Counted from the stretch's first letter, positions 1 through 64,000 are shown. The stretch: DNA of 64,000 nucleotides from Spirochaetota bacterium (GCA_043803405.1 JAZDKB010000004.1:155617-219616); one strand, 5' to 3'. The notes: generated by a model not told the origin, from the sequence alone. Program-made: numbers and translations.

Positions 1-594
1 GATTTTGAAGATGATAATATAGAAGAAAAAAGCGATGAGCTGGCAACCTTATCAATAGCCCAGGATAAATACGAGAAAGCAATTTCTGAAAATTTTAAAT
101 CAGGCGAGATCTTTTATAATCTGGGAAGAATATATTATAAAAAAGGACAATACGATAAAGCTGTTACTACATGGCTTAATCTTTATGAGGATTTTATTGC
201 TCAGCCGGAATTGCTTTTTGCATTGGGGAATGCGTTTTATCACCTGAGGAATCTTGAAGCCAGCAAGGGAGAATATCTGAAAGTCATTTCTTTTTATGAA
301 GGCAAAGCTGAAAATATAAAAGCAGTTTATCCTTCAAGAGAGGAACACAGTAAAATATTTCTTACATTATCATCCGTATACAATAATTTGGGCGCTGTAT
401 ATCAGATTCAGAATAATGAGACAAAAGCGAATATAAGTTACTGGAAAGCAATTGACAATGCTAATAAAATTGAAAGGGAAAACGAATTTGCACGCGTAAA
501 TCTGGCCAGGGCGTTTAAGCAGCACAAGGAAGCTGCGCAGCCTGTCCTTGATGAAAATATAGCGGTAAATGTGGAAAGTTACACTGATTTTTAA
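1..594 (+). CDS. TPR-repeat protein, C-terminal part (5' end outside window); resembles spirochaete flagellar collar protein FlcA-like TPR proteins
   Basis: Frame +1 is open from base 1 to TAA at 592-594; TPR-like helices (FYNLGRIYY, LFALGNAFY, YNNLGAVY). Confidence 0.7.
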   Translation, partial: DFEDDNIEEKSDELATLSIAQDKYEKAISENFKSGEIFYNLGRIYYKKGQYDKAVTTWLNLYEDFIAQPELLFALGNAFYHLRNLEASKGEYLKVISFYEGKAENIKAVYPSREEHSKIFLTLSSVYNNLGAVYQIQNNETKANISYWKAIDNANKIERENEFARVNLARAFKQHKEAAQPVLDENIAVNVESYTDF

Positions 595-31056: not shown

Positions 31057-32553
31057 CTACATATATTTCGGCTTAGTATAGGAGTACATATCGTGCACTC
31101 CGCCTTCCATCTGGGCGGATACTGATCTGAGTTCGAACCTGAGTTCTCCGGCATATAATAGTCCGTGAAGTGTCGGGATGTCCTTTGCGCCCATATCCTG
31201 GAACGAGTGCTTTAACCCCTGTATCAGATACTGCACATAATCGAATAGCGATCCCTTGTCCATAACGGCTCCCGAAACTCCCTGGGCAACTTTAATTTTG
31301 CTGTCCTCTGCAAAGTATCTCTTTGCCCCGCCTTCTTTCATTGCTTCGAGCGAGGCCATGCCTCTGTATTTTTTAAGGCGTACGCCGTTTTCGTAAAAAT
31401 ATTCCCCCGGAGCTTCATCGGTTCCGGCAAACATGGAGCCCATCATAACGGTTGATGCTCCGAGCGCGAGTGCTTTTGCGATGTGCCCGATGTTGGCAAT
31501 GCCCCCGTCCGCAATTACCGGGACGCCGGTTTCTTTTGCGTACTTAGCGCATCTGTATATGGCGTTTGCCTGCGCCCTGCCCACAGCCATTGTTGTCTGT
31601 GTTGTGCAGATTGAGCCCGGGCCCATGCCTATGCGGAGCGCGTCTGCGCCTGCGCTGATAAGGTTTGCGCATTGGTCCTCGGTTACCACATTGCCGCAGA
31701 TAACGTCCAGTTCCGGATATCTCTTTTTAATATATTTCAGCATTTCTATCTGGAACACTGAGTTGCCCTGCGCGGAATCAATAATAATTACATTGACTCC
31801 TGCGCTTGCAAGCGCTTCCAGCCTGTCCTTCGATTCATCCCTTGTTGAAATGGAAGCGCCTACCATAAGCTGTTTTTTATTATCCTTGGATGCAAACGGA
31901 TATTCCCGGTTAGTGTGAAGGTCGTTCCTGCTCATTAAAGCTACAAGATTTCCATTCTTGTCTACAATGGGAAGCTTCCCCTTCTTCGATTTTTTCAGTA
32001 TCTCGTTTGCTTCTTTTAATGATATGCCTTCAAGGGCAGTTACAAGGTTGGTAGTCATTACTTCGCCGAGTCTTTTTTCCCTGTCTGTTTCAAAATCGAT
32101 ATCGCGGTTTGTGACTATTCCAAGAAGCTTTGAATTGAGCTTTCCGTTTTCAGTGATCGGTATACCGGAAAATCCGTATCTTTGCCTGATTTTATCTATT
32201 TCAGATATTTTGAAGTCAGGAGAAAGAACAATAGGATTGTTTATAAAACCGTTTTCATATCTTTTTACTTTTTTTATCTCAACAAATTGTTCTTCAATAG
32301 TGTTATTATAATGGATGAATCCGACGCCGCCCAGAAGGGCAAGTCCTATTGCCATTTTCGATTCGGTGACCGTATCCATTGGACTTGATGAAAGAGGTTT
32401 TTTTATTTTTATGTTCTTTGTAAGGTTTGTTTCAAGGGAAACGTCGTCGGGATTAAAGTCGATAAATCCCGGTAAAATAATGAAGTCGTCAAAGGCAAGT
32501 CCTTTATGTGATCCGAATATTTCCGCCGCCGAGCTGCCGTCTTTATTTGCCAT
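31057..32553 (-). CDS. guaB: IMP dehydrogenase (with CBS pair)
   Basis: [20 protein letters not shown] (catalytic Cys), IADGG, YRGM. Confidence 0.97.
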
Positions 32554-46886: not shown

Positions 46887-47663
46887 TTAACAGGAAATAT
46901 TATCTTTCCCGTTAAAAATAATAAAACTATTCGTTCTTACTCTCCCGATCAAAATTATGTTATGCTTTACAGCGAGTTCGAATCCTCTTGTTGTTGTAGA
47001 TGCCCTTGATATTATGACCGGAACTCCGGCGTTTATTGCTTTATAGACAATCTCGCTTGCAAGCCTGCCTGTCAGTATTATCATCTTATCATGTAAATTT
47101 ATTGAATTTTTAATTGCAAAGCCCAGCGATTTATCGACTGCATTATGCCTGCCTATATCGTCATAAAAAGCGAGCATCTCACCATCTGCGGAGTATAAGC
47201 CTGAGCTATGAACGCCATGCGTGAGATCATGCAGATTGGAATGATTAACAAATTTATCCATGATTTTAATTATTGTGGAGGCTTTTACTATAGGTAGTAT
47301 AGTATTTATTAAATCGCTATTTATGCCTTTTCGGGTCTTTCCCCCTGCTGAGGCAATAAATTTAACGGGCAGTGTTTTTTCCGGTATTTTAGCGTTTGGG
47401 CCTGTAATTATATTTATTTCTTTTCCATTTTCGTCTATAACTACTTCCCGTATATCATCATTTGATCTTATAATACTGTTTGAAAGCAGATGACCAATAG
47501 CGAACTCTTCCATGCCGGACCCGGAGCAGGCAATCTCTGCGTATGGGGTTCCATTAATGTGCATGGTGAAGGTATACTCAGAACTCAAAGGAATCGTGAA
47601 TGGTTTAATTCTGCCTCTTGAATATTTATTTACATCAATATCCTTATATTCCGGGAGCGGCAT
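46887..47663 (-). CDS. fdhD: Formate dehydrogenase accessory sulfurtransferase FdhD-like (copy lacking CxxC)
   Basis: THGVH, DIGRHNAVDK, TGRLASE motifs. Confidence 0.85.
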   Translation of the reverse strand: MPLPEYKDIDVNKYSRGRIKPFTIPLSSEYTFTMHINGTPYAEIACSGSGMEEFAIGHLLSNSIIRSNDDIREVVIDENGKEINIITGPNAKIPEKTLPVKFIASAGGKTRKGINSDLINTILPIVKASTIIKIMDKFVNHSNLHDLTHGVHSSGLYSADGEMLAFYDDIGRHNAVDKSLGFAIKNSINLHDKMIILTGRLASEIVYKAINAGVPVIISRASTTTRGFELAVKHNIILIGRVRTNSFIIFNGKDNISC

Positions 47664-47917
47664 TTTATTCCTGCAAATTTATAAAATTAATATTTTTTAT
47701 GCTTATGAGGTAGTTCCAATCCATATTGCCTCATCTCTTTATAAGAGAAATTGTTTTTGTCGTGTCAAGGAGATAATAATAATTATGCAATGATATTTAT
47801 CAAAATACACCTAAAAATGAATTTGACTTTTTAATAATTATCTATTGATTTAAAGCTGGACTCAGCTTGTGGAAATATCTTTTTGTGTATTATTAACCAG
47901 CCTTTAGGAGGTAATTT

Positions 47918-48100
47918 ATGAGTAAAAATGAAGAACTGATAGTGAGCGCGGCTGTTTTGCGCGATGGCAAGAAAAAACTCAGCTGCGCACAGGCGATTAA
48001 AATATCCCAGGATCGCAATATCTCATTAAAGGAAATAGGCGAAATCTGCAACAGTAACTCAATCAAAATAATTGAATGTGAACTTGGCTGTTTCAAGTAA
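47918..48100 (+). CDS. Small Cys-containing hypothetical protein
   Basis: AGGAGG RBS; LSCAQA...IGEICN...IIECELGCF. Confidence 0.75.
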   Translation: MSKNEELIVSAAVLRDGKKKLSCAQAIKISQDRNISLKEIGEICNSNSIKIIECELGCFK

Positions 48101-48101
48101 T

Positions 48102-48533
48102 ATGAAAGTTATTGTAATTGCAGGTGCCCGTTCCAATGTTGGGAAAACACATCTTGCGCGTGCTTTGTGTGAATTGCTTCCTGGTTCAGTACGGGTAAAA
48201 ATCGGACATCATGCGCCCAAATCCGATGGCGAAGAAAACCTGTATCCTATGGGCACCGGCTTTGAAGAAATTGCGTCAAAGCACAGTAATGCGAGTTTTC
48301 TGATAATCGAAAGCAACAGCATACTCAGGGAGATTACGCCGGAATGTACAATTTATCTTCCCGCAGATAATCCGAAACCCTCGGCTGAAATCGCAGAAAA
48401 AAAAGCTGATATCATCCGCGGTAAAACTTTTCCGAATTCAAAAATATCCGTACTGGCAAAAAAACTCGAATGCGACGAGACAGTAATCCGGAAGATCGTT
48501 GAATTATCCGGAGCACTTATAGATCAACAATGA
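48102..48533 (+). CDS. Small P-loop protein (MobB-like fold), uncharacterised
   Basis: VIVIAGARSNVGKT Walker A-like, IIESNS; ATG one base after the upstream stop. Confidence 0.65.
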   Translation: MKVIVIAGARSNVGKTHLARALCELLPGSVRVKIGHHAPKSDGEENLYPMGTGFEEIASKHSNASFLIIESNSILREITPECTIYLPADNPKPSAEIAEKKADIIRGKTFPNSKISVLAKKLECDETVIRKIVELSGALIDQQ

Positions 48534-48779
48534 AATAAGTTTTGATATTAGAACTCATCTTAAAATTATATAATGTATTTCAATTTATCGAATATAAAAC
48601 TTAATTTTGTAAATATATTTTCAATTCTATTGACTTTTTGGTTAGTTTGTTTTATAAATAATTGAATAAGAGCGTATTATGGGAGTAATGAAATATCTGT
48701 TGAAATAGGCTCTAATAGCATTTCCCGGCAAATAAAGCCGTATGAGTCAGATTACAGGAAATCTTATGGAGGTATTTTT

Positions 48780-49094
48780 ATGTCCAACGAATTACCCAAA
48801 CATTATCAAAGCATTAAAACCAGATTTGAGGAGTACAGTAAGGCGCTGGATGAATTAGGAAAAGTAGTCCACAACTCCGGGCCAATAGATGTTAAAAATG
48901 CGCATCTGATTCAGCTAGCAGCAGCTGCCGCGATCAGATCTGAGGGAGGAGTTCACAGCCATGCCCGCAGAGCAATGAAAGAAGGGGCCTCACCAGAAGA
49001 AGTATATCATGCTCTAATTCTGCTTACCGGAACCATCGGTTTTCCCGCAGTTGCTGCTGCAATTGCATGGGTTGATGATCTATTAGTGGAATAA
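48780..49094 (+). CDS. Carboxymuconolactone decarboxylase / AhpD family protein
   Basis: LIQLAAAAA...HSHARRAMKEGASPEEV...TIGFP. Confidence 0.88.
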   Translation: MSNELPKHYQSIKTRFEEYSKALDELGKVVHNSGPIDVKNAHLIQLAAAAAIRSEGGVHSHARRAMKEGASPEEVYHALILLTGTIGFPAVAAAIAWVDDLLVE

Positions 49095-49281
49095 CCTGCC
49101 GTCTCGCCCCCGACTCTTTAATTGTTGAATAGCTTCAACAATATTTTTATTTGGAATATCAGTATTATTTATTTAAATTAAATAATAGTTGTCATGATAT
49201 GGAATAGTTATTCAATTTGATTCTGACATCACTATAGCTTTAATTTGTATTGAGATTTGTTCTATTAATAAAAGGTGAATT

Positions 49282-50001
49282 ATGAAAATATTATCTGTTG
49301 CAGGGAAAAAAAATACAGGGAAAACAACTCTGGTGGTTATGATAGTCAAAGAGCTCGTTAAACGGGGTTATAAAGTCGGCACTATTAAACACACAAATCT
49401 TGGATTTGATCTTGAAGGCAAGGATACGTGGAAACACAGGGAAGCGGGCGCCGGAATTGTTGTCGGTTCAGGAGAAAATACATTCTTTTTTATAAATAAG
49501 CCATTAAGCATTGAAAATATTTTAAAACTTATCGGCAATACTCAGGAACTGGATTATGTCGTAATTGAAGATTTTAAATTTGCCAATTACCCCATAATTT
49601 CCACTATCGATTTTAAAGATGATTTTACAATTGCTAATGTTGATGTTTTCTCGTTAAAACCCCAGGACATTGTTTCACTGGTTGACCTGGCCGAAAAAAG
49701 GACCTATGATGTGATTCCCGGAGCAGATTGCGGTGAATGCGGTTTTAGCACCTGTGTTGAAATGGCCAAGGCCATCATCAGAGGAGAAGCATCGGAAAAA
49801 TCCTGTAAAATGAAAAAATCAAAGGATGTGGAGCTATATATAGGCGATAAAAAAATCCCTTTAAATCCTTTTGTCCAGGATTTCATAAAAAAAAGCATAA
49901 TGGGAATGATAAGCTCTTTAAAAACAGATGAGGCTAAAACTGGACAAAAAAATGGCGCACATGATAAAATAGAATTGTGGATAAAAAATTCTGAGAAGTA
50001 A
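49282..50001 (+). CDS. mobB: Molybdopterin-guanine dinucleotide biosynthesis protein MobB with C-terminal Fe-S-like domain
   Basis: [34 protein letters not shown]...C; IPLNPFVQ tail. Confidence 0.88.
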
Positions 50002-50036
50002 TATTAAAGATAAGGTTGGAGATTTTATTTTAAAAA

Positions 50037-50849
50037 ATGATAATACAGTCAGTTAAACAATTTCCGGTTACACGTCTATACGCTTCCGGTTCCGGCAACA
50101 AATGGATAAAAGAGGACAGGGGAGTAGCTGTGGAAGCGCCTTTTACAATAGACATAGAAGGTGTCGATTCTTATACTATCCTGTGCAGCCCGGATGACAG
50201 ACGTGCAATGGCCGTCGGATTTATGTTCTCAGAAGGGCATATCCGGAGTGTAAATGATATTGCAATGCTCGCCGATTGCATGGACTTCCCTGACGTGATG
50301 CGTGTCAGACTTATTAATACGCCTCAGAAGAAAACCGAAACACCGGGCCGCAATTTGCTTGTTGTCTCTTCCTGCGGAATGTGCGGGAGCACTAATATGC
50401 AGGAGCGGATTACAGCTCTTCCGCAGGTAAAACATTCATTGCTTATCGGCACTGAGACAATGAATAGTGTGATGCAGCTGATGGATGAAAAACAGGATGT
50501 GTTTAAAAAGACGCGCGGAACGCACGCAGTTCTTATCTTTGATGCGAAAGGAAATGCGGTCTCTATTGCTGAGGATATAGGCAGGCATAATGCATTGGAT
50601 AAAGCTATAGGAAAAATTATGCTTGCCGGAAAAAAAGCTGAAGGCTGCGGAGCCGTGCTCTCCGGACGTGTCAGCTTTGAAATGATCTCGAAATGCAGCA
50701 ATGCAGGAATTGAAATTGTTCTGGCGGTATCTGCTCCTACTTCGCTTGCCATAGAGGCAGCTTCGCATTGCGGTATAACTTTAACCGCATCGGTTAGAGA
50801 CGGAAGTGCAGTCATTTATACGTTTCCGGAAAGAATTGATCATTCCTGA
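50037..50849 (+). CDS. fdhD: Formate dehydrogenase accessory sulfurtransferase FdhD
   Basis: SSCGMCG, TRGTHA, EDIGRHNALDK, SGRVSFEM, VSAPTSLA. Confidence 0.93.
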   Translation: MIIQSVKQFPVTRLYASGSGNKWIKEDRGVAVEAPFTIDIEGVDSYTILCSPDDRRAMAVGFMFSEGHIRSVNDIAMLADCMDFPDVMRVRLINTPQKKTETPGRNLLVVSSCGMCGSTNMQERITALPQVKHSLLIGTETMNSVMQLMDEKQDVFKKTRGTHAVLIFDAKGNAVSIAEDIGRHNALDKAIGKIMLAGKKAEGCGAVLSGRVSFEMISKCSNAGIEIVLAVSAPTSLAIEAASHCGITLTASVRDGSAVIYTFPERIDHS

Positions 50850-51070: not shown

Positions 51071-52189
51071 ATGCCAGGTAATCAACCTATGAGAAGACAA
51101 ACAGAGCATGTTAAACAATTAAAGAAAATGTATTCTAAAGAAGATGGAAGGTTAAAGGGAGAAGGTTATTGGGAAAAACTCCCATTATTCTGGTTTATCT
51201 TGTTTTTATCATATAAATGCACCAGAAGGTGTGAATATTGTTATGCTTTTAACCAGGTAGGCGATAAAAATAAGAATGAAATGGATGAAAATACTTTTTC
51301 AAGATTACTGGACTGGATTCCTGAAGTCTGGAAACTTAATAATGTTAAAGTAAATTCTATTATTTTTCTCGGCGGCGAACCATTGCTTCGGACGGACAGA
51401 ATTAAAAAAATTATGGATTCTGTTTATAAAAAAACCGACGGCATGCAGGGACTATGTTATACAAACGGCGATTTAATTGATTCTGTAAAATGGGAAGATC
51501 TTGAAGATATTCAATGGATGTCCATGAACATCACGGATATCAGTATTGAAGAATTAGCCAGAAGGATGAACGTAATAAAAGAAAGATCAAATGTTATCGG
51601 TCAGACGATTGTTGCTACCTTGGATGATTATAATTTAAATAGAATTCTTGATGTAAGCAGATTCGGAATTGAAAACGGATACCGGTTAAGATACCAAAAG
51701 AATTTATATAAAGGAATAGATGCGGAATTCCAGAAGAAAGTGTTGAAAAAATATCATGAATTGTGCGATTTACTGGAAGAATATATTATAAAAGGATACA
51801 ATGTCCATACTACTTTTCTGATCGATACTTTAATATCCGGGTGGGATGTTGATGATACCCCATATATCTGCGGTAGACGACTTGCAACGATATTCCCGGA
51901 TGGATCAGTGGGTCCGTGCATCAGGGATCATGCATTTAAAACCGGGACAATATTTGACCCGGATCCTTTGACTCTAATCCAATGTAATAAGTTTCATTAC
52001 GGTCTTGGAGAACCGGATATACCTGATGAATGCAGAGTATGCGAAGTCAGGGCTGCCTGCCAGGGAGGATGTCCGCATGACAAACTTCTAATGACCGGCT
52101 CCAGATCGGGAAAATCTGTTTCGTGTGAATTGCACAAGGAAATAATCCCCAGATTAAGATATCTGGATAAATTAAAAAGTAAAAAATGA
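51071..52189 (+). CDS. Radical SAM/SPASM domain protein (start uncertain)
   Basis: CTRRCEYC, LGGEPLL, TNG; SPASM motifs CGRR..PDGSVGPC and CRVC..CQGGCP..C. Confidence 0.9.
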   Translation: MPGNQPMRRQTEHVKQLKKMYSKEDGRLKGEGYWEKLPLFWFILFLSYKCTRRCEYCYAFNQVGDKNKNEMDENTFSRLLDWIPEVWKLNNVKVNSIIFLGGEPLLRTDRIKKIMDSVYKKTDGMQGLCYTNGDLIDSVKWEDLEDIQWMSMNITDISIEELARRMNVIKERSNVIGQTIVATLDDYNLNRILDVSRFGIENGYRLRYQKNLYKGIDAEFQKKVLKKYHELCDLLEEYIIKGYNVHTTFLIDTLISGWDVDDTPYICGRRLATIFPDGSVGPCIRDHAFKTGTIFDPDPLTLIQCNKFHYGLGEPDIPDECRVCEVRAACQGGCPHDKLLMTGSRSGKSVSCELHKEIIPRLRYLDKLKSKK

Positions 52190-52758: not shown

Positions 52759-55452
52759 ATGAGTAATACGTTTATCTTAAACGGGAAAGAGACTCCGTTT
52801 ACACCCGGACAGATGGTTCTGGATGCTGCCCGCAACGGCGGAATCGAAATTCCTACATTATGTTATTTGAAAGACGCTACGCCTACCGGGGCTTGCAGGG
52901 TTTGTCTGGTCGAGGTTAAAGGCGCGCGTTCTTTAATGGCAGCCTGTTCCACTCCGGTAACATCCGGAATGGAAGTAAGTACTGACAGTGGTCTTGTTCA
53001 TAGAGCCAGAAAAATGAACATAGAACTGTTGCTTGCCAGCGGTAAGCATAATTGCCTTGTTTGCGAAGCAAACGGCGATTGCCGTCTTCAGAGTTTAGCT
53101 TATTTTTATAAGATTGAAACTCCAAGATTTACCGCAACCGAAGAATTTTATCCTACAGAGGATGTGAATCCTTTTATTGTCCGCGATTTCAGCCGCTGCA
53201 TTCTTTGCGGACGCTGTGTTCAGGCTTGTAATGAGCTTGTCGTTAACCGTGCGATTTCACAGGGTTATCGAGGTTCCGAAAGTAAAATTGTTACTGGAGG
53301 CGACCAGCCGTACAATAACAGCGAATGTGTTTTCTGCGGCCAGTGCGTTGAAGTTTGTCCCGTAGGAGCACTGACAGAAAAGAAAGCCAAAGGATTGGGA
53401 CGTCCGTGGGAAGTGCAGAAAATACGTACGACTTGTCCTTATTGCGGCGTCGGCTGTCAACAGTTGATGCATGTTAAGGATGGTAAAATTGTTAAAGTTA
53501 CAGCTGTCGAAGACGCCGAGCCTAATCAAGGCAGATTATGCGTAAAAGGCCGTTTCGCATACGACTTTATTTATTCAGAAGAAAGACTTAAAACACCATT
53601 AATCCGCCAGAAAAACGGAGAATTCAAGGAAGCATCCTGGGATGAGGCTCTCGATCTGGTGGCCAATAAATTTAAAGAGATTATTAAAAAAGACGGGCCG
53701 GATGCCATTGCAGGCGTCAGTTGCGCCCGTAGTATCAACGAAGATTCATACCAAATGCAGAAACTTTTCCGCGCGGCGATCGGGACGAATAACATCGATC
53801 ACTGCGCCCGTACCTGACACGCTCCAACAGTCGCCGGTCTGGCGACTTCGTTCGGTTCAGGTGCAATGACAAATTCTTTTGCAGATTTTAAAAAAGCTAA
53901 AATGATCTTATGCATCGGAACAAACATGACTGAAGCCCATCCCGTAGCAGCAACGTTTGTAAAAGACGCTGTGTTGGCTGGCTCCGAGTTAATTGTTGTA
54001 GATCCGAGACGCACTGAGCTTGTCGATTTTGCAAAAATGCATGTGCAAATTAAAGTCGGCTCTGACGTAGCACTGATTAACGGTGTTATGAACGTATTAA
54101 TTAATGAAAATCTTTACGATAAAAAATATGTAGACTCGTGTACTGTAGGTTTTGAGGAACTTAAAAAGAAAGCGATGGAGTATCCGCCAGAGCGTGCTGC
54201 AGAGATTGCCGGCGTTTCTGCAGATACAATCCGCAATTTAGCGCGTAAGCTTGCTTCCGTTAAACCTGCAATGCTGATGTATACTCTGGGTATTACCGAG
54301 CATATTTGCGGCGTAAACAACGTAATGTCATGCGCAAATCTCCAGATGCTTCTGGGTAACGTAGGTTTTGAGTGCGGCGGAGTTAATCCTCTGCGCGGAC
54401 AGAACAATGTTCAGGGCGCATGTGATATGGGCGCGCTTCCGAATGTTTTCCCGGGATATCAACGCGTAGATAACGCACAGGCCCGCGAAAAATTCATGAA
54501 AGCATGGAATGTAAAGAGTCTGCCCGAAAAGCCAGGTATGATGATGCCCACAATGATGAAAAACCTGACTACAGGCAAAATTAAAGCATTTTATGTATTC
54601 GGCGAGAACCTGGCCAATACTGAGCCGGATATCCATCATGTTGAAAAAGAACTGCAGTCAGCTGAATTCCTCGTATGTCAGGATATTTTTCCGACAGAAA
54701 CTACAAAATTCGCGCATGTTATTTTCCCAACTACGGCATGGGGTGAACATGATGGAACGTTTACAAGTTCAGAAAGAAGAGTCAATCGTGTAAGGGTAGC
54801 CAGTAAAGCTCCGGGCTTAGCTAAACCCAGCTGGTGGGTATTCAAGGAAATTGCCAAACGTATGGGGCATGATTGGCAATCCAACAGCGCACAGGAACTC
54901 TGGGATAATGAACTATCTGTGCTTGCACCCTCTATGGCTGGCATTAAGTTTTCCAGACTGGAAAATAACGGAATACAATGGCCGGCACCAACTGCAGACC
55001 ATCCGGGTACTCCTACAATGCATAAGGATGGCTGTTTTACCTGTGGACAGGGAGTGCTAAAAGCCATTGACTATATACCGCCTGCGGAAGTTCCGGATAA
55101 GGAATATCCGATGACACTTTCAACAGGACGCCGTCTGTATCATTATCACACAAGAACGCAGACAGGTCGATGCGAGGGTATCAATGATATTCTTGGCGAG
55201 GAAACAGCGGATATTTCACCGGCAGATGCGCTTGAAAAAGGCATAAAAGATGGTGAAAAAATATCGGTTAAATCGCGCAGGGGCAAAGTTGAGGTTAAAG
55301 CCCGCGTGACCAAACAGGTTCCAAAAGGGCTGGTTTGGATGGCTTTCCATTTCAGGGAAAACTGTGCCAACTGGTTAACTAATCCTGCATACGATCCGGT
55401 AACCCAAACCGCAGAATATAAAGCCTGCGCAGTGCGCATTGATAAGCTTTAA
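52759..55452 (+). CDS. fdhF: Selenocysteine-containing cytoplasmic formate dehydrogenase alpha subunit (NuoG-like Fe-S N-terminus, Mo/W-bis-PGD); Sec at 53815-53817
   Basis: ORFs 52711-53817 and 53866-55452 are in frame across TGA, reading DHCART-U-HAPTVAGL; CPYCGVGC and LRGQNNVQG motifs; no Tat signal. Confidence 0.95.
53829..53847 (+). promoter_or_regulatory. Putative bacterial SECIS hairpin of fdh
   Basis: AGTCGCC-GGTCT-GGCGACT stem-loop starting about 11 nt after the UGA. Confidence 0.8.
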
Positions 55453-55619: not shown

Positions 55620-56858
55620 TTAAATCTCATCATGCTCAATTAATTGAATAGCGACTTTTTCGCCTGCCTTAACTCCGGTAACATTTTCCGGTATCATTAT
55701 TAGACAATTAGCATCGCTCATTGAACGAAGTATGGAAGAATTCTGGTTGCCTGTTGTTGTAACGTAAAATTCGTTATTTTTAATGGTAAAATTGCCTCTT
55801 ATCAGGTTTGTCGCACCGGATAGCTTACTGATATCCTCTTCGAGAAATGCGCTCACTACAGGCTTCTCAATTTTTTTTGCACCCATCATTTTAAGCAACG
55901 CGGGTCTCACAAATTGAATAAATGAAGTAAGAGTCGGAACAGGATTTCCGGGCAAACCGAAAATTAATTTATTATCTTTTGTCCCAAAGGTGCAAGGTTT
56001 GCCAGGTTTTATATTAATCTTTTCAAATTCTATTGAAATATTCAGATCGGTATAAATATCTTTAACAAAATCGTATTTTCCGGCCGATACACCGCCTGTA
56101 GATATCACTACATCGGATTCCAGTGCTTTTAAAAATATTTCCCTCATATCCTTCTTAATGTCTTTAACAATACCTAAATAATTGGGAATTGCGCTATACT
56201 TTTTTACTTCAGAGTATAAACTGTATGCGCTGCTGTTTCTGATCTGGCCGGCTTTGATTTCTTCGCCAATATCCGCCAACTCATCGCCTGTCGAGATTAT
56301 AGCGACAGTCGGCTGTTTATAAACTTTTATTTTTGCGCGGTTAAGCGACGCAAGGATGCCTATATTGGCAGTACTAAGGCGTTCTCCTTTGTACAGTACA
56401 CTATCTCCTGTTTTAAGACTCACTCCGGCAAACCTGTAATTCCTGAATTTAGCTGTTTCGCTGAAAATTTTTACAAATCCGGCTGTTTCTTCCGTTTCTT
56501 CGAACTGAATTACTGCATCGGCACCTTCCGGTATAGGAGCGCCGGTCATTATTCTTATTGCAGTTCCTTTTAAAACTTTTTTCCCGGCCAGGGAACCGCC
56601 TGCCTGTACTTCGCCGGTAATTTGAAGCTTTATCGGGTTTTCCTTTGATGCGCCAAGCGTGTCTTCGGAAATTATCGCATATCCGTCCATTGCGGAATCA
56701 TCTAAAGGGGGAATCATTATATCCGAAACAATGTCCTCATATAAAACACGGTTAAATGCCTCCATTATGGAAATGTCTTCATAATTCAGAGGCCGGACTG
56801 AATTTAAAATAATATTTTGCGCTTCTTTATAGGATACTGTTAATTTTTTATTATTCAT
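55620..56858 (-). CDS. moeA: Molybdopterin molybdo/tungstotransferase MoeA
   Basis: SAMDGYA, IMTGAPIP, STGDEL, TGGVS, KPGKP, LPGNP. Confidence 0.95.
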   Translation of the reverse strand: MNNKKLTVSYKEAQNIILNSVRPLNYEDISIMEAFNRVLYEDIVSDIMIPPLDDSAMDGYAIISEDTLGASKENPIKLQITGEVQAGGSLAGKKVLKGTAIRIMTGAPIPEGADAVIQFEETEETAGFVKIFSETAKFRNYRFAGVSLKTGDSVLYKGERLSTANIGILASLNRAKIKVYKQPTVAIISTGDELADIGEEIKAGQIRNSSAYSLYSEVKKYSAIPNYLGIVKDIKKDMREIFLKALESDVVISTGGVSAGKYDFVKDIYTDLNISIEFEKINIKPGKPCTFGTKDNKLIFGLPGNPVPTLTSFIQFVRPALLKMMGAKKIEKPVVSAFLEEDISKLSGATNLIRGNFTIKNNEFYVTTTGNQNSSILRSMSDANCLIMIPENVTGVKAGEKVAIQLIEHDEI

Positions 56859-57159: not shown

Positions 57160-59154
57160 ATGAGATACGCCGAGACAGGATATAATTTAGAGATTGATCT
57201 GGCGACAGGTAATATTGAAAAGGTCGAATCTGACCCTAAAGTACTTGAAACCTATCTTGGAGGACTAGGTTCCAGCGTAAAGATACATTGGGACAGGACT
57301 CCGCCGGAAGTAAAAGCGTTTGATCCTGAAAATCTGCTGATTTTCAGCGCCCCGCTTTTAGTAGGTACCCCTGCCATGAGTTGTAACCGTACATGCGTTA
57401 CCACAATATCACCTCAAACAAATTTACTAGCATATCCGATGATGGGGGGATTTTGGGCAGCTGAGCTCAAATATGCCGGATATGACAAAGTAATCATGCG
57501 CAACAAAGCACCGCACTTGTCATATATATATATAAATAATGATAAAGTTGAAATACGCGATGCCAGACATTTAAAGGGCAAAGGCGCTGTTGAAACACGT
57601 GAACTTATTAAAGATGAGTTAAACGATCCGAATGTAGTGGTTGCTGCAATCGGTATGGCCGGTGAAAACCGGGTTTTTCTGGCTTCCATTGAGCAGGGCC
57701 GTTCCAGTGCCAGCAGGCTCGGAGGCGGAGCGGTTATGGGGGATAAGAATGTAAAGGCTATAGCGGTTCGCGGAACAAAAGACCTTAACCTGGCACGCGG
57801 TGCAGAGTTTATGGAGGTCATGAAGGGCGTAATAGATTACATAAATTACAGGAATGCAAATCCTATTCCGGATGTAATGACCATTTTAGCAGGCATCGGC
57901 TCTCCGCAGGAAATGGTTCACACGGATGAGAGCTGGCACACTCAGAACTTTATGTGGGGCAACTCCCGTACAAGAAGAAGAGATTTCTGGGATGAAAAAG
58001 TTGCTGTAGAATGGCCGTCTACCCAGTTAGAAGCTATAAAACGATTAATCAGCTGTTATAATTGTCCGCAGCATTGCGGGGCATTGATTTCCTATAAAGA
58101 TGTTCCTAGATTCAAACAAAAATGTTTCACAAAAATGACTTATTCAATGGCGGCTTATGTTGATACCATGGCATTCAATTTCAGGGTTGCGCAAAAGGCC
58201 ACTGAGTATGGATTAGACGGATTCGGAACCCCGCAAATCCTGGCATTTGCTATTGAGCTTAAAGAAGCAGGCATTTTAACTGATGCAGACTTTGTAGGCG
58301 GCGAGAATTATCCGCCATGTCCGCCCGATAGTGATAAAGAAGGAAGATTTGAGTGGCTGCTTGACAGAATGGTTCGTCGTCAAGGAATCGGCGATTATAT
58401 GGCCGATGGTCTTTACTGGATGGCAAAGAGGATCGGCAAAGGCGCAGAAGATATTGAACACAATACAATTAAGAAACACGAGCAGCTTCCTCTTAAACTC
58501 GGGACTCTTGATCCTATTTATTTCCTTATGTATACCACAAATGAGAAGATAAGTATTACACAGATTGAAGGTAACTGGCCTCAGGCAGCATTCCCGACAA
58601 TGGAGCAGAGACTAAACTTTGTTAAGGATTGGCCGCAGCTTCCGGATGATCATTTTAAGCAGTATTTGCTGGATTGGGAACCGCGCGGAGAAAAAGCTAT
58701 TCCATATTTCCCGACTCCCCAGATGTGCGCTGAAATTGTTGACTGGATGGAAATGCTGCACAACATTGATGATGCTACCGGATACTGTTGCGGTATGTCG
58801 TCATTCTGCCTTAAGCCTCCGTATCACATACATGTTCACCCGAAGTTGATCTCTGCTGCTACAGGAATGGATTTAGATGAAGCCGGTCTTAAAAAGATAG
58901 TAAATAGAAGCAGAAATTTACACAGGGCATTCAACTTAAAGAGAGGCTTGGTAAGAGCTGATGAGGCTCCGCCCAAGGACCACTGGAAGAAGAGATTCCC
59001 TGAACTGGAAAAAGAACTGTTGGATACATATTACAAATACAAGGGATGGAATATGGACGGTGTTCCAACTAAAGAAAGATTCCATGAACTTGATCTGGAT
59101 TTCGCTGCAGAAGATTTAATAAAGAGGGGGATATTAAAAGATGGCCAAAATTAA
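57160..59154 (+). CDS. bamB: Tungsten-pterin AOR-family catalytic subunit of class II benzoyl-CoA reductase (BamB-like)
   Basis: MRYAETGY start, GSPQEM..DE.WH, ISCYNCP..C, KCF, TQIEG, KPPYHIH, HWK.RFPELEKELLD match recalled Geobacter BamB rather than generic AOR. Confidence 0.88.
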   Translation: MRYAETGYNLEIDLATGNIEKVESDPKVLETYLGGLGSSVKIHWDRTPPEVKAFDPENLLIFSAPLLVGTPAMSCNRTCVTTISPQTNLLAYPMMGGFWAAELKYAGYDKVIMRNKAPHLSYIYINNDKVEIRDARHLKGKGAVETRELIKDELNDPNVVVAAIGMAGENRVFLASIEQGRSSASRLGGGAVMGDKNVKAIAVRGTKDLNLARGAEFMEVMKGVIDYINYRNANPIPDVMTILAGIGSPQEMVHTDESWHTQNFMWGNSRTRRRDFWDEKVAVEWPSTQLEAIKRLISCYNCPQHCGALISYKDVPRFKQKCFTKMTYSMAAYVDTMAFNFRVAQKATEYGLDGFGTPQILAFAIELKEAGILTDADFVGGENYPPCPPDSDKEGRFEWLLDRMVRRQGIGDYMADGLYWMAKRIGKGAEDIEHNTIKKHEQLPLKLGTLDPIYFLMYTTNEKISITQIEGNWPQAAFPTMEQRLNFVKDWPQLPDDHFKQYLLDWEPRGEKAIPYFPTPQMCAEIVDWMEMLHNIDDATGYCCGMSSFCLKPPYHIHVHPKLISAATGMDLDEAGLKKIVNRSRNLHRAFNLKRGLVRADEAPPKDHWKKRFPELEKELLDTYYKYKGWNMDGVPTKERFHELDLDFAAEDLIKRGILKDGQN

Positions 59155-59680
59155 GAAAAAAGTTAAGTCTATAAAGGTTGATGCGGATAAGTGCAGCGGC
59201 TGCAGGTCATGCGAAGTAATCTGCTCCGCGTTCCATGCTATACCGAGATACAGCAGTGTTAATCCTGCAAGATCCCGCGTACAGGTTGTACGTTATCCGA
59301 TGAAAGATATTTGGATCCCGGTGTTTGCCGGCGAGTATGCTCCCGCCGAATGCATGGGAAGAGAGATATATACTATTGATAAAAAGGAATATAAGGAGTG
59401 CGATCTTTGCAGAGCCGCATGCCCGGCAAGGGACAGATTCAAAGAGCCCGATTCCGGACTTCCGTTAAGATGCGATATGTGTGAGGATGAGCCGCCGCTG
59501 GAAAAACCGAAGTGTGTTGAATGGTGCCTGTATGACGTACTGGAATATTCGGAAAGAGAAGAAGAAGTTGAAGAATCGGTTGAGATGGAGAAGGTTGAGG
59601 CAGGATTGACGGCGATGGTAAACCAGTATGGCTTGCAGTCGGTAATTGATACTGTTAGTAGAATCTCAAAGAAGGATTAA
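59141..59680 (+). CDS. bamC: Fe-S electron-transfer subunit BamC-like
   Basis: CSGCRSCEVIC, AGEY.PAEC.GR, CRAACP.R..FKEPDSGLPL.CDMC; overlaps the bamB stop. Confidence 0.85.
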   Translation: MAKIKKKVKSIKVDADKCSGCRSCEVICSAFHAIPRYSSVNPARSRVQVVRYPMKDIWIPVFAGEYAPAECMGREIYTIDKKEYKECDLCRAACPARDRFKEPDSGLPLRCDMCEDEPPLEKPKCVEWCLYDVLEYSEREEEVEESVEMEKVEAGLTAMVNQYGLQSVIDTVSRISKKD

Positions 59681-59845
59681 AACGTTAAGATGTAATTAAG
59701 AGGATTTGGTAACACAATAATTTACTGAAAATTTTTAATGTTTACTAAATTATCAGGTAATATTTCTTTGTTATTATCATCAACTATATAAGGTTCCTGC
59801 AATTGTAAGATCACGGAACTAAAAAAATTAATGAGGTGATAGAAA

Positions 59846-62800
59846 GTGGAAAACGTTGTATCATTAACAGAAAATATTGAGCAACTTTCCAAAAGTTTTG
59901 GAGAAAGTAATTTTGGAGATGTAATGGTTGTTGGCGGAGGGATTAGCGGTATTCAGGCTTCTCTTGATCTTGCCACTGCCGGCTTTAAAGTCTACATGGT
60001 AGAAAAATTGCCGAGCATTGGTGGGCACATGGCGCAGCTTGATAAGACCTTTCCCACCAATGACTGTTCTATGTGAATACTTGCACCCAAGCTGGTCGAG
60101 GTCGGCCGGCACCCAAATATAGAAGTACTCACTTTTACAGATGTAAAAAGTGTCGAAGGCGAAGCAGGAAATTTTGATGTAACCCTGATTAAAAGGCCCA
60201 GATATATTATTGAAGATAAATGTACGGGTTGTACCACTTGTGTGGAATACTGCCCTGCGAAATACCCTGATCAATATAATCAGGATATTTCAATGAATAA
60301 AGCGGTTCATATATACTTCCCTCAGGCAATTCCTCTTATTGCATACATAGATGAGAGCTGTCTTTATCTTAAAGAGAAGAAATGCCAGATTTGTGTAGGT
60401 GTATGTAAGAATGATGCTATTGATTTAAAACAAGCGCCGGAAAAAATAGAAATAAACGTAGGTGCTATTATTTTATCATCAGGTGTTGACCCGTATGATC
60501 CAAAACTAAAAGCGGAGTATCATTATGGGGACTATCAGAATGTTGTAACCAGTATGGACTTCGAGCGTCTTTTAGGATCTACAGGCCCATATTCCGGTGA
60601 GATATTGCGCGCATCCGATAAGAAGCATCCGCATAAAATGGCATGGATTCAATGCATTGGATCGAGAAATGCTACAGAAGATTCTCACAGTTATTGTTCA
60701 GCAGTATGCTGTACTTATACCCAGAAGCAGGTGATCTTGGCAAAAGATCATGATGCTGATGCTAAATGTGTGATTTTTCATAATGATGTTAGGGCATACG
60801 GAAAAGATTTTGAACGCTTTTACCAGAGAACAGAAGCTCTTTCAGATGTCCGGTTTATAAGAAGCTATGTTACAATCGGGAAGGAAGATCCCGTAACTAA
60901 GAATGTAACCATAAAATATTTCACTCCGGAGGGCGGAGTAAAAGAAGAAGAATTTGATATGGTTGTATTATCAGTTGGTTTGACTCCTCCTCTTTCAGTA
61001 AAGGAAATTGCAAAAACATTCGATATCGATCTGAATGATCACAATTTTTGTAAACTGAACCCGGCTAATCCTATGACAACGAGCAGGCCGGGTATATTTG
61101 TTAGCGGTGGCTTGCAGGGTCTTGTAGATATTCCTGAATCGGTTTTTAGCGCAAGCGGCGCTGGATCGCAAATCGGTGAGCTTTTGGATTACAGGCGTGG
61201 AAATCTTTCGAAAGAGAGGATTTACCCGGAAGAAAAGGATGTATCTAAAGAGGAACCTAGGATAGGAGTATTTGTGTGCCATTGCGGCGCAAATATCAGC
61301 AGAATTGTAAATGTTCCTGATACTGTTGAATATTGCAAAACATTACCTAATGTTGTTCATTGCCAGCAGCAGATATTTTCATGTGCTACAAACTCAGCCC
61401 AGGAAATAACGGATGTTACCAGAGAAAAAGGGCTTAACCGTGTTGTTATTGCTGCATGTTCCCCCAGAACGCTTGAACCGTTGTTCCGTGATACTGTCCG
61501 CGAAGCAGGGATAAATCAGTATTATATGGAAATGCCGAATATCAGAGAGCATAACTCGTGGGTACATCAGAAAGAAAAGGAAGAAGCAACACAGAAGGCT
61601 AAAGAAATAATCCGGATGTCGATAGCACGCGCCCGCAAGCTGGAGCCGTTAAAGGAATTCGACCTTAATGTAAATAAAGCGGCACTGGTAGTTGGTGGCG
61701 GTGTAGCGGGCATGACTTGTGCTTTATCAATAGCGAATCAGAAACACGATGTTTATTTAATTGAAAAGCAGAAAGCACTTGGTGGGATGACACGAAGAAT
61801 ACATTCTACTTTAGAAGGACTTGATGTTCAAAAATATTTAGATGATCTTATTAAGAAAGTATATCAACATCCTTTAATTCATGTTTATGAAAATGCGACT
61901 ATAGCAGAAGCGACAGGTTATGTTGGTAATTTTGTAACTACAATAAAATCTGACAGAGGTGTTACGGAGATTAAACATGGTGCTGCAGTTCTTGCAATAG
62001 GCGCTGATTTATATACCCCAACTGAATATCTATATGGGCAGGATGACAGAGTAATGACCCATATTGAGTTAGAAGGGAAAATAGCGGAAAAAGACGAAAA
62101 AATTATTAATGCAAATACATTGGTAATGATCCAATGTGTTGGCTGTAGAAATCAGGACAGAAATTACTGCAGCAGGGTATGTTGCAGTGAATCTGTAAAG
62201 AATGCCTTAAGTCTGAAAAAATTAAATCCAAAGATGGATATATATATCCTGTTCAGAGATGTGAGAACATACGGATTTAATGAAGATTATTACAGGGAAG
62301 CAAGAGGCAAGAATGTAAGATTTATACGTTATGAGACGGATGAGAATGATAAGCCCCTTGTTACTAAAATTAATGAGTACGGTAAGAATATTCTGAGGAT
62401 TACCGTAACGGATAAAACCTTAAATAAAAAGATAGCCATAGATGCTGATGCGCTTGCTCTGGCTGCAGCCATTGTTCCATCTGCTGTAACAAAGGAAATG
62501 GCCAGCTTATTCAAGGTTGTCCTTAGCCCGGATGGTTTCTTTAAAGAAGCACATGTCAAATTAAGGCCGGTTGAGTTTGCTGCTGACGGTGTTTATCTAT
62601 GCGGGTTAGCTCATTATCCTAAGTTCCTACAGGAAACAATTAACCAGTCTTATGGTGCTGCGGGCCGTGTGTTAACACTTCTTTCACATGATGTGGTTGT
62701 TGCTTCAGGTTCAGTTTGCTATGTGGATGAGAAAAAGTGTATGGGATGCGGGGCTTGTGTAGATGTTTGTACATATTCAGCACTGGAGCTTAATGATACA

Positions 62801-62977
62801 AAACAGGGCAAAAAGGTTGTAGTTAATCCCGTTCTATGCAAAGGAGATGGGCTCTGCAACTCAAAATGTCCAACCGGAGCCATTTCATTAAAGCATTTTA
62901 CAGATGAACAGATAGAATGTGAAATTGACGCTTTGACAGAAGAAGAAGAGATTGTGAAACAAATCGATGCAGCTTAA
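59846..62977 (+). CDS. hdrA: Selenocysteine-containing large HdrA-like flavo-Fe-S protein (BamE-like); Sec at 60074-60076
   Basis: ORFs 59846-60076 and 60242-62977 join in frame through TGA, reading [19 protein letters not shown]; two GGG.(S/A)G FAD motifs, QC.G.R, CS.VCC, terminal ferredoxin. Confidence 0.92.
60091..60110 (+). promoter_or_regulatory. Putative SECIS hairpin of hdrA/bamE
   Basis: GCTGGTCG-AGGT-CGGCCGGC stem-loop (with G-U pairs) 14 nt after the UGA. Confidence 0.7.
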
Positions 62978-63034
62978 TGTATAGATTACAAATGAAAGCT
63001 ACTTCTAATTTATTTAAATAAGAGGTGAAAACAA

Positions 63035-63889
63035 ATGAGTACTGGTAAATTTAAACCAAGAATAATTGCTTTCGCGTGCAATTGGTGAGCATACGGTGCT
63101 GCTGACCTGGCTGGAGTTTCCAGACTGCAATATTCAACTGAAATGAGAATTATCCGTGTAATGTGCTCTGGCAGAGTGGATATGGCGCATGTACTTAGAG
63201 CATTTTCAAATGGTATCGATGGTGTGTTTATTGGTGCCTGCCATCTGAATGAGTGTAATTATATTACTCACGGCAATTACCAGACACAAAACATGGTGTT
63301 ATTATTAAAAAAAATAATGGAACATATCGGATTTAATCCAAAAAGATTAAGAATGCAATATATGTCCGGTGCTGAAGGAAATGTTTTTGTTGAATCTTCA
63401 AACGATTTTATAAAAACTATTAAAGAGCTGGGACCTTTTGGAAAAGGCGAAGGGGAAGACGTAAAAAAAATAACATCGAAACTCGCAGATATCTCAAAGC
63501 TGGTTCCATACATTAAGGTATCCATGAATGCCAAACTGGCAAAACGTCTTGTGAAGGCTGAAGAGGATTTCGAAGAGTATGAAAAGGTTTTCACAAAAGA
63601 CGAGATAGAAAAGCTGTTTGCCGAAGTACCTGCTTACTATATCGAACCGGAGAAATGCCAGGCATGTATGACCTGTGCCAGAAGATGCCCTGCAGACGCG
63701 ATCATAAGTGCCAAGCAGGAAGTGCATATAGTTGATCAGGATAAATGCATAAAATGCGGGACATGCATTGAAGCTTGTCCGCCGAAATTCAAGGCAATTA
63801 CAAAGATAGTTGGTGCACCTGTTCCGCCGCCGCTTCCTGAAGGGAAAAGAGCTGTTGTTAGAAAGAGTAAAGAAAAAGAGGTTGCATAA
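63035..63889 (+). CDS. mvhD: Selenocysteine-containing MvhD-like [2Fe-2S] protein with C-terminal 2x[4Fe-4S] domain (BamF-like); Sec at 63086-63088
   Basis: ATG 63035 (GAGGTG RBS) reads FACNW-U-AYGAADLAG and continues in frame into ORF 63143-63889 (RVMCSGRV, ACHLNEC; CQACMTC/CIKCGTC). Confidence 0.92.
63108..63127 (+). promoter_or_regulatory. Candidate SECIS hairpin of mvhD/bamF
   Basis: CTGGA-GTT-TCCAG core, extendable with a bulge, about 20 nt after the UGA. Confidence 0.5.
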
Positions 63890-63892
63890 CCT

Positions 63893-64000
63893 ATGACAGA
63901 AGCAGTGATAAATTTAAATGATAAGAGTTATAATTTTAGTAATGCCATGGTAGCAGTTGGGGGAGTTGATGTTTGTTATTGCTACCAGTGCGGTAAATGC
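63893..64000 (+). CDS. N-terminus of an HdrC/BamD-like Fe-S protein (truncated by window end)
   Basis: ATG three bases after the mvhD stop; reads MTEAVINL...GGVDVCYCYQCGKC. Confidence 0.7.
   Translation, partial: MTEAVINLNDKSYNFSNAMVAVGGVDVCYCYQCGKC

Follow-up and report, generated by a model that had tools for sequence, protein, structure and literature searches.

A BamD-less class II benzoyl-CoA reductase operon with an HdrC tail in a member of the phylum Spirochaetota

We analysed a 64,000-nucleotide stretch of DNA from a Spirochaetota bacterium (GCA_043803405.1, JAZDKB010000004.1:155617-219616; hereafter the window), which forms the end of contig C4 of a 3.98-Mb genome assembly (G000; 54 contigs, 94% complete, 1.3% contamination), and found that it closes with an operon for a class II, tungsten-type benzoyl-CoA reductase. 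The operon runs bamB-bamC-bamE-bamF and continues into hdrC (Table 1), retains the catalytic residues of BamB, carries two selenocysteine (Sec) codons and contains, as assembled, neither bamD nor bamGHI. A first, sequence-only reading of this DNA had described co-oriented BamB-like, BamC-like, Sec-HdrA and Sec-MvhD genes, which are indeed present as bamB, bamC, bamE and bamF, with in-frame TGA at codon 77 of bamE and codon 18 of bamF; it was right in calling this a class II bam operon, but the layout is not the canonical bamBCDEFGHI. Our favoured interpretation, which we hold to be reasonably probable, is that BamB-C-E-F together with HdrC, and by extension HdrB, make up a spirochaete class II reductase whose second electron would leave via HdrCB to a disulfide rather than via BamD to an electron transfer flavoprotein (ETF). 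The enzyme class itself is well known; apparently new are the spirochaete host, from a lineage for which the sequence-only reading knew of no described role of this kind, and the replacement of BamD by HdrCB, since we found no earlier report of either in a literature whose subscription journals lay mostly outside coverage.

In the following, G001 and G002 denote congeners of G000, other G numbers relatives from the same order, C numbers contigs of G000, and L numbers individual DNA stretches, of which L154 to L168 and L203 are metagenome contigs from a scan for HdrB. On sequence grounds, BamB is a genuine class II benzoyl-CoA reductase catalytic subunit, for which turnover of benzoyl-CoA is predicted. 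After the benzoyl-CoA reductase structure 4z3w, the next solved structure to match it is an AOR (E 1.2e-59), and 533 of 662 residues are identical to Syntrophus aciditrophicus P0260, the nearest named BamBs being those of S. aciditrophicus (81%), Pelotomaculum terephthalicicum JT (81%) and Syntrophorhabdus aromaticivorans UI (75%). Aligned with 4z3w, the protein keeps Cys322, the tungsten ligand, as well as Glu251, Glu257 and His260, which form the proton conduit with Glu251 and His260 as donors (PMC12096430). Cys322 is kept in the BamB rows of our tree alignment and absent from the AOR rows, and in the tree itself (92 rows) the window BamB falls inside an 85-sequence BamB clade (SH-aLRT 100), apart from the seven AOR-like rows. 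BamB proteins are widespread (7028 of 8000 scored proteins match at E 1e-200 or better), with matches in Desulfobacterota, Bacillota, Chloroflexota and others among the best 80 of 419 GTDB stretches. Within the clade, the G000 protein groups with Syntrophus and Pelotomaculum, that of G002 with Syntrophorhabdus aromaticivorans, and that of G001 with G005 near Desulfoprunum and Desulfosarcina; a single BamB clade for the three congeners is rejected by the approximately unbiased test (p 2.9e-6, 20/34 rows, the group having been picked after the tree was seen). Phylogenetically, then, BamB has been exchanged between lineages, unlike BamE and Oah.

The genes downstream of bamB complete the reductase core. 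BamC is 72% identical to the product of the gene that follows bamB in P. terephthalicicum, and bamE and bamF each contain a single in-frame TGA (60074-60076 and 63086-63088, respectively), predicted to be read as Sec; wherever the motif was found in a bam locus, these two sites read TGA or Cys. Contig C26 carries a tRNA-Sec (ARAGORN) flanked by selD-, selA- and selB-like open reading frames (ORFs) in the order selD-tRNA(Sec)-selA-selB, the three genes having been identified from their translations, without a family search. In BamE, Lys294 sits at the place expected from Lys280 at the bifurcating flavin of Geobacter; this lysine motif was discarded as a discriminator of the two FAD sites, as Lys is present in both halves of nearly all rows. 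A scan for promoters and terminators was uninformative (30 promoter and 8 terminator sites, compared with 23 and 7 after shuffling).

The fifth gene, previously read as the start of an HdrC/BamD-like gene, is present and belongs to HdrC rather than to BamD: the 36 encoded residues give E values of 4e-13 to 5e-8 against the HdrC of eight hdrC-hdrB loci, but only 0.006 or worse against BamD, via one short motif. A tblastn search with congener BamD found no bamD remnant in the 165 bases that separate bamC from bamE, and over G000 as a whole BamD finds no closer match than a paralogue of 42% identity over part of the length, where true orthologues reach 65-72%. Such orthologues are present in G001, G002, G005, G015 and G079; G000 and G006 have only distant paralogues (42%), and both carry hdrC after bamF, and the contig of G009 stops after bamC. 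The complete arrangement, bamB-C-E-F-hdrC-hdrB without bamD, lies on a single contig of G006. In G000, contig C6 begins within an hdrB gene, whose product is assembled for its 192 C-terminal residues and shares 78% with the HdrB of G006, and no HdrB of this type was found in G001, G002, G005 or G015 (best 42%). In the best 80 of 419 stretches with named GTDB bamB loci, 38 loci span the region from bamB-bamC to bamE: bamD lies between them in 36, the other two, without bamD, are cut before their tails, and hdrC follows bamF in none of the 38. A metagenome scan with the HdrB of G006 (best 80 of 208 stretches) returned ten stretches with an HdrB of at least 73% identity, five of which (L154, L155, L156, L160 and L162) show bamB-C-E-F-hdrC-hdrB without bamD; in L158, a contig that does not reach bamB, the rest of the order is the same, L159, L161 and L168 are too short, L157 has a different context, and L156, L158 and L160 are near relatives. 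The hdrCB-type bam contigs from metagenomes have a GC content of 47-56%, so that their hosts probably belong to another lineage. Mapping hdrCB onto the BamE tree takes a minimum of three changes (seven rows; G006 left out), which suggests that the outlet was exchanged repeatedly. Judged by gene order, the reductase occurs in a recurring BamD-less, HdrCB-containing form, to which the hdrB of G000 is linked by inference.

The hdrC tail could instead stem from recombination or assembly confusion with an operon on contig C39, with a true bamD hidden in the unassembled 6% of the genome. C4 and C39 are 89-100% identical over their last 400 bases and identical over the last 141, the closest BamE, that of G001, comes with a bamD, and we found no public contig that bridges the C4 end. 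However, the two ends differ at 16 of their last 300 positions, which makes them separate copies that run into one collapsed repeat within hdrC, and the same gene order stands on intact contigs, in G006 and five metagenome loci, without any trace of bamD between bamC and bamE in the window; we thus consider this origin very unlikely. The C39 module itself (G000:C39:44058-51307, L130) reads fdhA-hdrA-mvhD-hdrC, Cys occupying each of the three positions that are Sec in the C4 genes. In the tree, the HdrA of this module is the sister of Syntrophorhabdus aromaticivorans BamE, and the module may have donated the hdrC tail of the C4 operon. Two other arrangements were seen among the metagenome contigs: L154 (328-5408) holds two tandem bamB-bamC pairs (61% and 49% identical to the window BamB) before one bamE-F-hdrC-hdrB, and in L157, L163, L165, L166 and L203 a related hdrC-hdrB is followed by a fusion of an HdrA N-terminal piece with a NuoE-like domain and then by NuoF-like genes.

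What the exchange of BamD for HdrCB would mean for the enzyme is suggested by the active-site residues. In the Geobacter complex, resolved by cryo-electron microscopy, BamGHI forms a confurcating input, BamE the bifurcating unit and BamD the outlet to ETF, to which the high-potential electron of class II reductases has recently been assigned; the heterodisulfide site of BamD is filled by His230, Trp325 and Tyr356, and its distal cluster is disrupted (bioRxiv 10.64898/2026.04.10.717634). In our alignment, Ser-Pro-His-Cys replaces Cys-x-x-Cys in 43/43 BamD rows, Trp is found in at least 42 and Tyr in 42, all at a constant offset of 4 from the Geobacter positions. The bam-type HdrB proteins keep Cys-x-x-Cys and lack the three BamD pocket residues in all 15 full-length rows, six of them without bam linkage. 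All ten cysteines of the two non-cubane motifs of methanogen HdrB have their counterparts in G006 HdrB, and the nine Cys positions compared are kept in each of the 15 full-length rows, the C-terminal five being assembled in G000. Because HdrB retains these cysteines and is free of the residues that fill the BamD pocket, a disulfide acceptor is predicted, and we put the chance that the high-potential acceptor is a real disulfide at about even.

Alternatively, HdrC and HdrB might simply be a BamD in two pieces, which would hand the electron to ETF or another one-electron carrier without involving a disulfide. BamD has itself been described as an HdrBC-like fusion (bioRxiv 10.64898/2026.04.10.717634), and in enzymes such as EMO non-cubane domains do no more than relay electrons (bioRxiv 10.64898/2026.08.18.745454); in addition, G000 has ETF and EMO-like genes, and a disulfide partner gene is absent beside the operons surveyed. 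These points are met by the cysteines that HdrB retains without the three residues filling the substrate site of BamD, and by the position of emo-etfB-etfA, which follows bamF in G002 and six named loci but in none of the hdrCB-type operons. On balance, we regard a two-piece BamD as rather unlikely, though not negligible.

The input side of the complex also departs from Geobacter. Residues 197-281 of BamF correspond, at 62% identity, to the C-terminal domain of a BamH; in Geobacter, it is this BamH domain that accepts electrons from ferredoxin (bioRxiv 10.64898/2026.04.10.717634). Such a fused-ferredoxin BamF occurs in 19 of the 38 named loci, bamG being the next gene in 12 of the 38, and a short BamB-F form has been named for strain BzS1 (PMC13416013). 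The closest BamGHI set in G000 lies on C48 and shows 48, 63 and 42% identity, where bam-linked BamG, BamH and BamI mostly share 74-93, 71-92 and 63-86%; from identity and context, we judged it unlikely that these NuoEFG-like genes serve as BamGHI in trans. In that region (G000:C48:32722-38802, L133), 2-oxoacid:ferredoxin oxidoreductase genes precede the NuoEFG/BamGHI paralogues, without a hydrogenase subunit.

The joint absence of bamGHI and bamD fits the energetics, in that a ferredoxin-only donor makes a disulfide acceptor feasible. With potentials of -620 mV for benzoyl-CoA, about -500 mV for ferredoxin and +16 mV for ETF (bioRxiv 10.64898/2026.04.10.717634), and assuming a disulfide near -200 mV, the benzoyl-CoA and disulfide pair would have a mean of about -410 mV; as a rough inference, ferredoxin alone can drive this pair, and a mix of NADH and ferredoxin could barely do so. 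The pathway we favour would begin with activation of benzoate by Bcl and reduction of the ring at the tungsten site of BamB without ATP, followed by ring opening through Dch-Had-Oah, beta-oxidation, glutaryl-CoA dehydrogenase and glutaconyl-CoA decarboxylase, a series of steps that we consider very likely as a whole. Reduced ferredoxin alone would likely feed in through the BamH-type ferredoxin domain fused to BamF. Going by the structure of the Geobacter complex, electrons would bifurcate at the first FAD of BamE, the low-potential one passing to BamCB. For the other electron, HdrCB in the place of BamD is predicted, with the scales about level, to reduce a real disulfide, which other Hdr modules of the cell would recycle. 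At least three further Hdr modules are encoded in G000 (on C9, C10 and C39). On C10 (10059-29254, L137), known from N-terminal sequences only, MetF-like, split glutamate-synthase-like and hdrC-hdrB-large hdrA-mvhD genes are found.

A search of G000 for the downstream pathway, for which the sequence-only reading had listed candidate genes, recovered bcl, had and oah above their family cut-offs (scores/cut-offs 627/375, 462/339 and 531/464 bits), together with a dch-like gene and the Sec genes described above; of the other genes on that list, bamGHI are missing from the operon and tupABC were not found, a ModA-type set being present. Reduction of aromatic rings by this organism is a prediction from its genes, and a likely one. 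Dissimilatory sulfite reductase (dsrA) was not found in G000, which encodes two formate dehydrogenases and, over cut-off, an NADH-dependent [FeFe] hydrogenase; for these reasons the organism is probably a syntroph.

Several observations weigh against this interpretation. In BamB, the histidine expected as Zn ligand at 255 lies one place earlier, at 254, as it does in the Syntrophus, Pelotomaculum, Syntrophorhabdus aromaticivorans and Desulfosarcina proteins and most of this BamB branch, and the window BamB lies on the branch opposite most 4z3w-like sequences, 4z3w itself being absent from the tree. Concerning the pathway, the dch candidate reaches 198 bits where its family model requires 292, only 32 codons, interrupted by an in-frame stop, are left of the glutaryl-CoA dehydrogenase gene that precedes gcdC-gcdA, an intact dehydrogenase candidate (C19:314868-316025) is under cut-off (405 of 470), and no TupB-type permease over cut-off was found in G000. 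As for the tail, C4 breaks off after 108 bases of hdrC, its link to the hdrB on C6 is putative, two contigs lead into the repeat but just one hdrB end was found, and the 94% completeness of G000 leaves room for a bamD elsewhere in the genome. Finally, the proximal-motif His of methanogen HdrB is Leu in 16/16 rows, DsrC, one candidate disulfide carrier, was not found in G000, and the ETFs and EMO-like protein that G000 encodes keep ETF available as an acceptor. DsrC was also rejected as the carrier on its distribution, which (4/10 genomes) mismatches the hdrCB pattern.

The assignment of dch is supported by the genes within the had-oah-dch clusters of G015 and G079, which score 196 and 198 bits on the same model, much like the G000 candidate. 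The C19 dehydrogenase has as its best PDB match 3mpi, the glutaryl-CoA dehydrogenase of D. multivorans, and its orthologues adjoin gcdA, a gene named with the help of synteny, in G002 (90%) and G006 (83%). The C19 type occurs in exactly the three bam genomes that have no canonical type over cut-off (G000, G002 and G006), the other five having the canonical one. One could still envisage that the reductase acts on another aryl-CoA, such as a substituted benzoyl-CoA, or that the pathway is decaying and no longer supports growth on aromatics. The broken glutaryl-CoA dehydrogenase gene could be taken in this sense, as could the under-cut-off hcrBCA-like set, which suggests additional substrates, and the BamB branch, which includes sequences that lie beside moeA, as the uncharacterised second paralogue of Geobacter does (PMC1924859). 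Yet bamB is the only AOR-family gene found in G000, the bam genes, bcl, had and oah are intact, the substitute dehydrogenase is intact and 90% identical to the gcdA-linked gene of G002, and the nearest named BamBs come from known benzoate degraders, so that we hold both variants to be improbable. The hcr-like set, made up of hcrB-, hcrC- and hcrA-like genes that all stay below cut-off, lies on C47 (5318-17101, L257), in a block that also encodes a CoA ligase, a TRAP transporter and an acyl-CoA dehydrogenase; the 6/10 genomes with hcrA-like genes are the same as those with the benzoate-CoA ligase, and the block is a possible feeder route for a substituted aromatic. With regard to metal supply, the model NF038017 (called ABC_perm1 by the tool), which we take to be that of the Tup permease, is over cut-off in 4/7 genomes of the family, G000 to G002 not among them. 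PF12849, tried as a probe for TupA, was abandoned after yielding two PstS and a weak ModA-like match. Since no Tup permease was found in the genus, the mod-type set on C20 is the likely tungstate uptake route of G000.

We then turn to the host, which on sequence evidence is a member of the phylum Spirochaetota. Among the 120 RpoB proteins nearest to that of G000, the organism-named matches are all labelled Spirochaetes or Spirochaetota bacterium, except for one plain "bacterium", and Leptospira does not occur among them. Three flaA genes (PF04620) are present in G000 and none in the 14 controls; two of the FlaA proteins are closest to the Leptospira FlaA1 and FlaA2 models, yet remain under cut-off (198/500 and 224/440 bits). 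C4 itself carries two markers, pyrB and an FlcA-like gene for a periplasmic flagellar collar protein, the latter with a whole product of 1087 aa (NF047371, E 2e-56, under cut-off). The RpoB of G000 is 75% identical to that of Spirochaetes bacterium ADurb.Bin218, which is placed in class UBA4802. This class has been called the sister clade of Leptospirales (bioRxiv 10.1101/2023.01.26.525422), and from these two points UBA4802 is the most likely class of the host, which by its sequences stands outside the family Leptospiraceae. The earlier assignment to a Leptospira-related spirochaete lineage was hence correct as to the phylum, as RpoB, flaA, flcA and PyrB agree, but the host most likely belongs to a sister class rather than to Leptospiraceae. 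A 16S rRNA gene is present in G000. GuaB, compared with PDB entries as a taxonomic marker, gave no taxonomic information.

The ring-reductase trait is not peculiar to G000 but shared by eight genomes of its order. In this order, bamB occurs in 8/122 genomes, and oah exceeds its cut-off in exactly those eight; had does so in seven and bcl in six of them, and neither was found in two bam-less genomes of the same family. By family, bamB is present in 5/7 genomes of that of G000, both congeners included, and in 3/64 of a second one. A sample of 401 genomes across the phylum, in which three candidates were scored per genome and some genomes had part of their bases missing, gave seven bamB matches, all inside the order, and none in the 321 sampled Spirochaetota genomes outside it. 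The claim of an aromatic-ring-reducing spirochaete made from the window is therefore supported by genes well beyond the window.

Against this background, a chimeric contig or mislabelled bin, with the operon derived from a Desulfobacterota or Bacillota co-inhabitant, has next to no probability. It might be suspected from the position of the operon at a contig end, from the affinity of BamB to Syntrophus and Pelotomaculum with congener BamBs that do not form one clade, and from the tetranucleotide profile of 57-64 kb, which lies at the 8th percentile of 541 G000 windows. Other genes track the host, however: the BamE proteins of G000 and G001 are sisters (support 99; FastTree, 48 rows), FdhA is 87% identical to its congener counterparts, and Oah shares 88% with G002, 83% with G001, 81% with G005, 78% with G006 and 78% with G015, compared with 59-62% to two outside loci, G009 and G079 carrying another type (45-46%). 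The GC content at third codon positions of the bam genes (0.33-0.48) is within the range of G000, PyrB on C4 shares 95-96% with that of the congeners, and the bam operons of G002 and G015 are surrounded by spirochaete core genes, so that independent assemblies already contradict a chimera. As eight of the 122 order genomes share bamB and oah, and G000 has bcl, had, a dch-like gene and selABCD, chimerism of the contig is unlikely; the contig and genome are spirochaetal by RpoB, PyrB and FlaA. None of the three outcomes that the sequence-only reading had named as refutations, namely a protein outside the BamB clade, a chimeric or Desulfobacterota contig and a lack of downstream pathway genes, was thus borne out. 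Two public sequencing runs match the window in small shares (0.12 and 0.09). One of them, X1, consists of groundwater metatranscriptome contigs with eight pieces of at least 99% identity, including short exact pieces in bamB, bamC and bamF and one in a kinase gene at 44 kb, but none that spans the distance from guaB to bamB; owing to possible DNA carry-over, it was not used as evidence of expression or habitat.

Compared with the Bam[(BC)2DEFGHI]2 complex of Geobacter metallireducens (whose BamBC is 4z3w), the G000 system has the same BamB residues, BamC, double-HdrA BamE and Sec-BamF, with Had and Oah downstream. It differs by its spirochaete host, by lacking bamD and bamGHI in the operon, by the ferredoxin domain fused to BamF, by HdrC(B) after bamF, and by a Sec in BamE instead of the Cys59-Cys62 pair of Geobacter. 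Pelotomaculum and Syntrophorhabdus resemble G000 in their fused-ferredoxin BamF, in having no adjacent bamGHI and in the nearby moeA and radical SAM genes; Pelotomaculum, however, has a full bamD between bamC and bamE, Syntrophorhabdus a partial match there, and neither has hdrCB after bamF. With the methanogen HdrABC-MvhD complex (PDB 5odc, 8rvu), the system shares HdrA, MvhD, separate HdrC and HdrB and the ten Cys in two motifs, but the bam-type HdrB reaches only about 120 bits against its methanogen counterpart and 146 of 345 on the HdrB model, with the His to Leu change noted above; the low-potential output would be BamBC rather than free ferredoxin, and CoM-S-S-CoB is not expected in this host. 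A thiol/disulfide pair was reportedly proposed by Nobu in 2015 for the aromatic metabolism of Syntrophorhabdus. Members of UBA4802, the probable lineage of G000, have been described as syntrophic fatty-acid oxidisers (PMC7382037, PMC13248872), and the available parts of these two papers, supplements included, make no mention of benzoate or benzoyl-CoA degradation in the class. With these oxidisers G000 has beta-oxidation genes, formate dehydrogenases, ETF and an EMO-like protein in common.

When spirochaetes turn up in cultures that degrade hydrocarbons or benzoate, they are usually regarded as scavengers. With eight genomes that carry both bamB and oah, they become candidates for the primary ring-breaking step and could be targeted by stable-isotope probing. 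The recurring BamD-less form, moreover, cannot take the BamD-to-ETF route as described, and a six-subunit form without an NADH module offers a smaller object in which to study bifurcation and to search for the substrate of bacterial HdrB. It is tempting to speculate that one spirochaete order constitutes an overlooked guild of syntrophic aromatic-acid degraders, in which BamBCEF-HdrCB would bifurcate ferredoxin electrons, possibly derived from formate, between the ring and a bacterial disulfide, and in which the outlet is an exchangeable cassette, BamD-to-ETF or HdrCB-to-disulfide, that was swapped several times, the disulfide form being the less wasteful; taken as a whole, we offer this picture tentatively, with somewhat less than even confidence.

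Table 1. Features of the window, with two loci on other contigs of G000
Feature	Position	Strand	Evidence or remark
bamB, tungsten catalytic subunit, 664 aa	57160..59154	+	PDB 4z3w, E 4.8e-293
bamC, iron-sulfur partner, 179 aa, 12 Cys	59141..59680	+	Fer4 domains
Spacer, 165 bases, place of bamD in canonical operons	59681..59845	.	Without bamD remnant
bamE, double HdrA flavoprotein	59846..62977	+	HdrA structures, E 2e-182
bamF, MvhD domain fused to two-cluster ferredoxin domain	63035..63889	+	PF02662 residues 10-133, Fer4 201-250
hdrC 5' end, 36 codons, cut by contig end	63893..64000	+	HdrC matches
moeA, metal insertion into pterin cofactor, divergent from bamB	55620..56858	-	NCBIfam MoeA, under cut-off
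fdhA, Sec formate dehydrogenase with NuoG-like N-terminus	52759..55452	+	Pfam; TGA 53815-53817
Radical SAM gene	51071..52189	+	PF04055
fdhD	46887-47663	-	Accessory block 46887..50849
P-loop-like ORF	48072-48533		Accessory block
CMD-family ORF	48780-49094		Accessory block
mobB-like	49282-50001		Accessory block
fdhD	50037-50849		Accessory block
pyrB, host marker on C4	41711..42652	-	95-96% identical to both congeners
FlcA-like periplasmic flagellar collar gene, 3' end	1..594	+	NF047371, E 8e-25 (fragment)
Glutaryl-CoA dehydrogenase remnant	G000:C43:23957-24052 (L132)		Directly upstream of gcdC-gcdA
modD-like, two modA-like and modB-like genes	G000:C20:61154-64471 (L239)		

Upstream of bamB, the window holds several genes that recur near bamB elsewhere. 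Its MoeA is 73-75% identical to the products of moeA beside bamB in Pelotomaculum and Syntrophorhabdus, and the radical SAM protein shares 64-84% with genes near bamB in Pelotomaculum, Syntrophorhabdus and Desulfoprunum, a companion of this kind being found also in G005. Orthologues of the Sec formate dehydrogenase lie upstream of bamB in both congeners, and thus in all three genomes of the genus; the enzyme might supply the reductase with electrons or take them up from it. Homologues of the accessory block likewise recur near bamB in the congeners and in named loci. Elsewhere in the assembly, C5, C11, C17, C25, C38 and C46 are among the contigs with a lower tetranucleotide correlation (0.92-0.96) and may be contaminants, and C8 and C14 start with an identical dxs N-terminus; no gene from any of these contigs is used here. 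A last observation concerns guaB (31057-32553 of the window), whose IMP dehydrogenase product is nearer to the eukaryotic enzymes in PDB (about 640 bits) than to the bacterial ones (382 bits at best).

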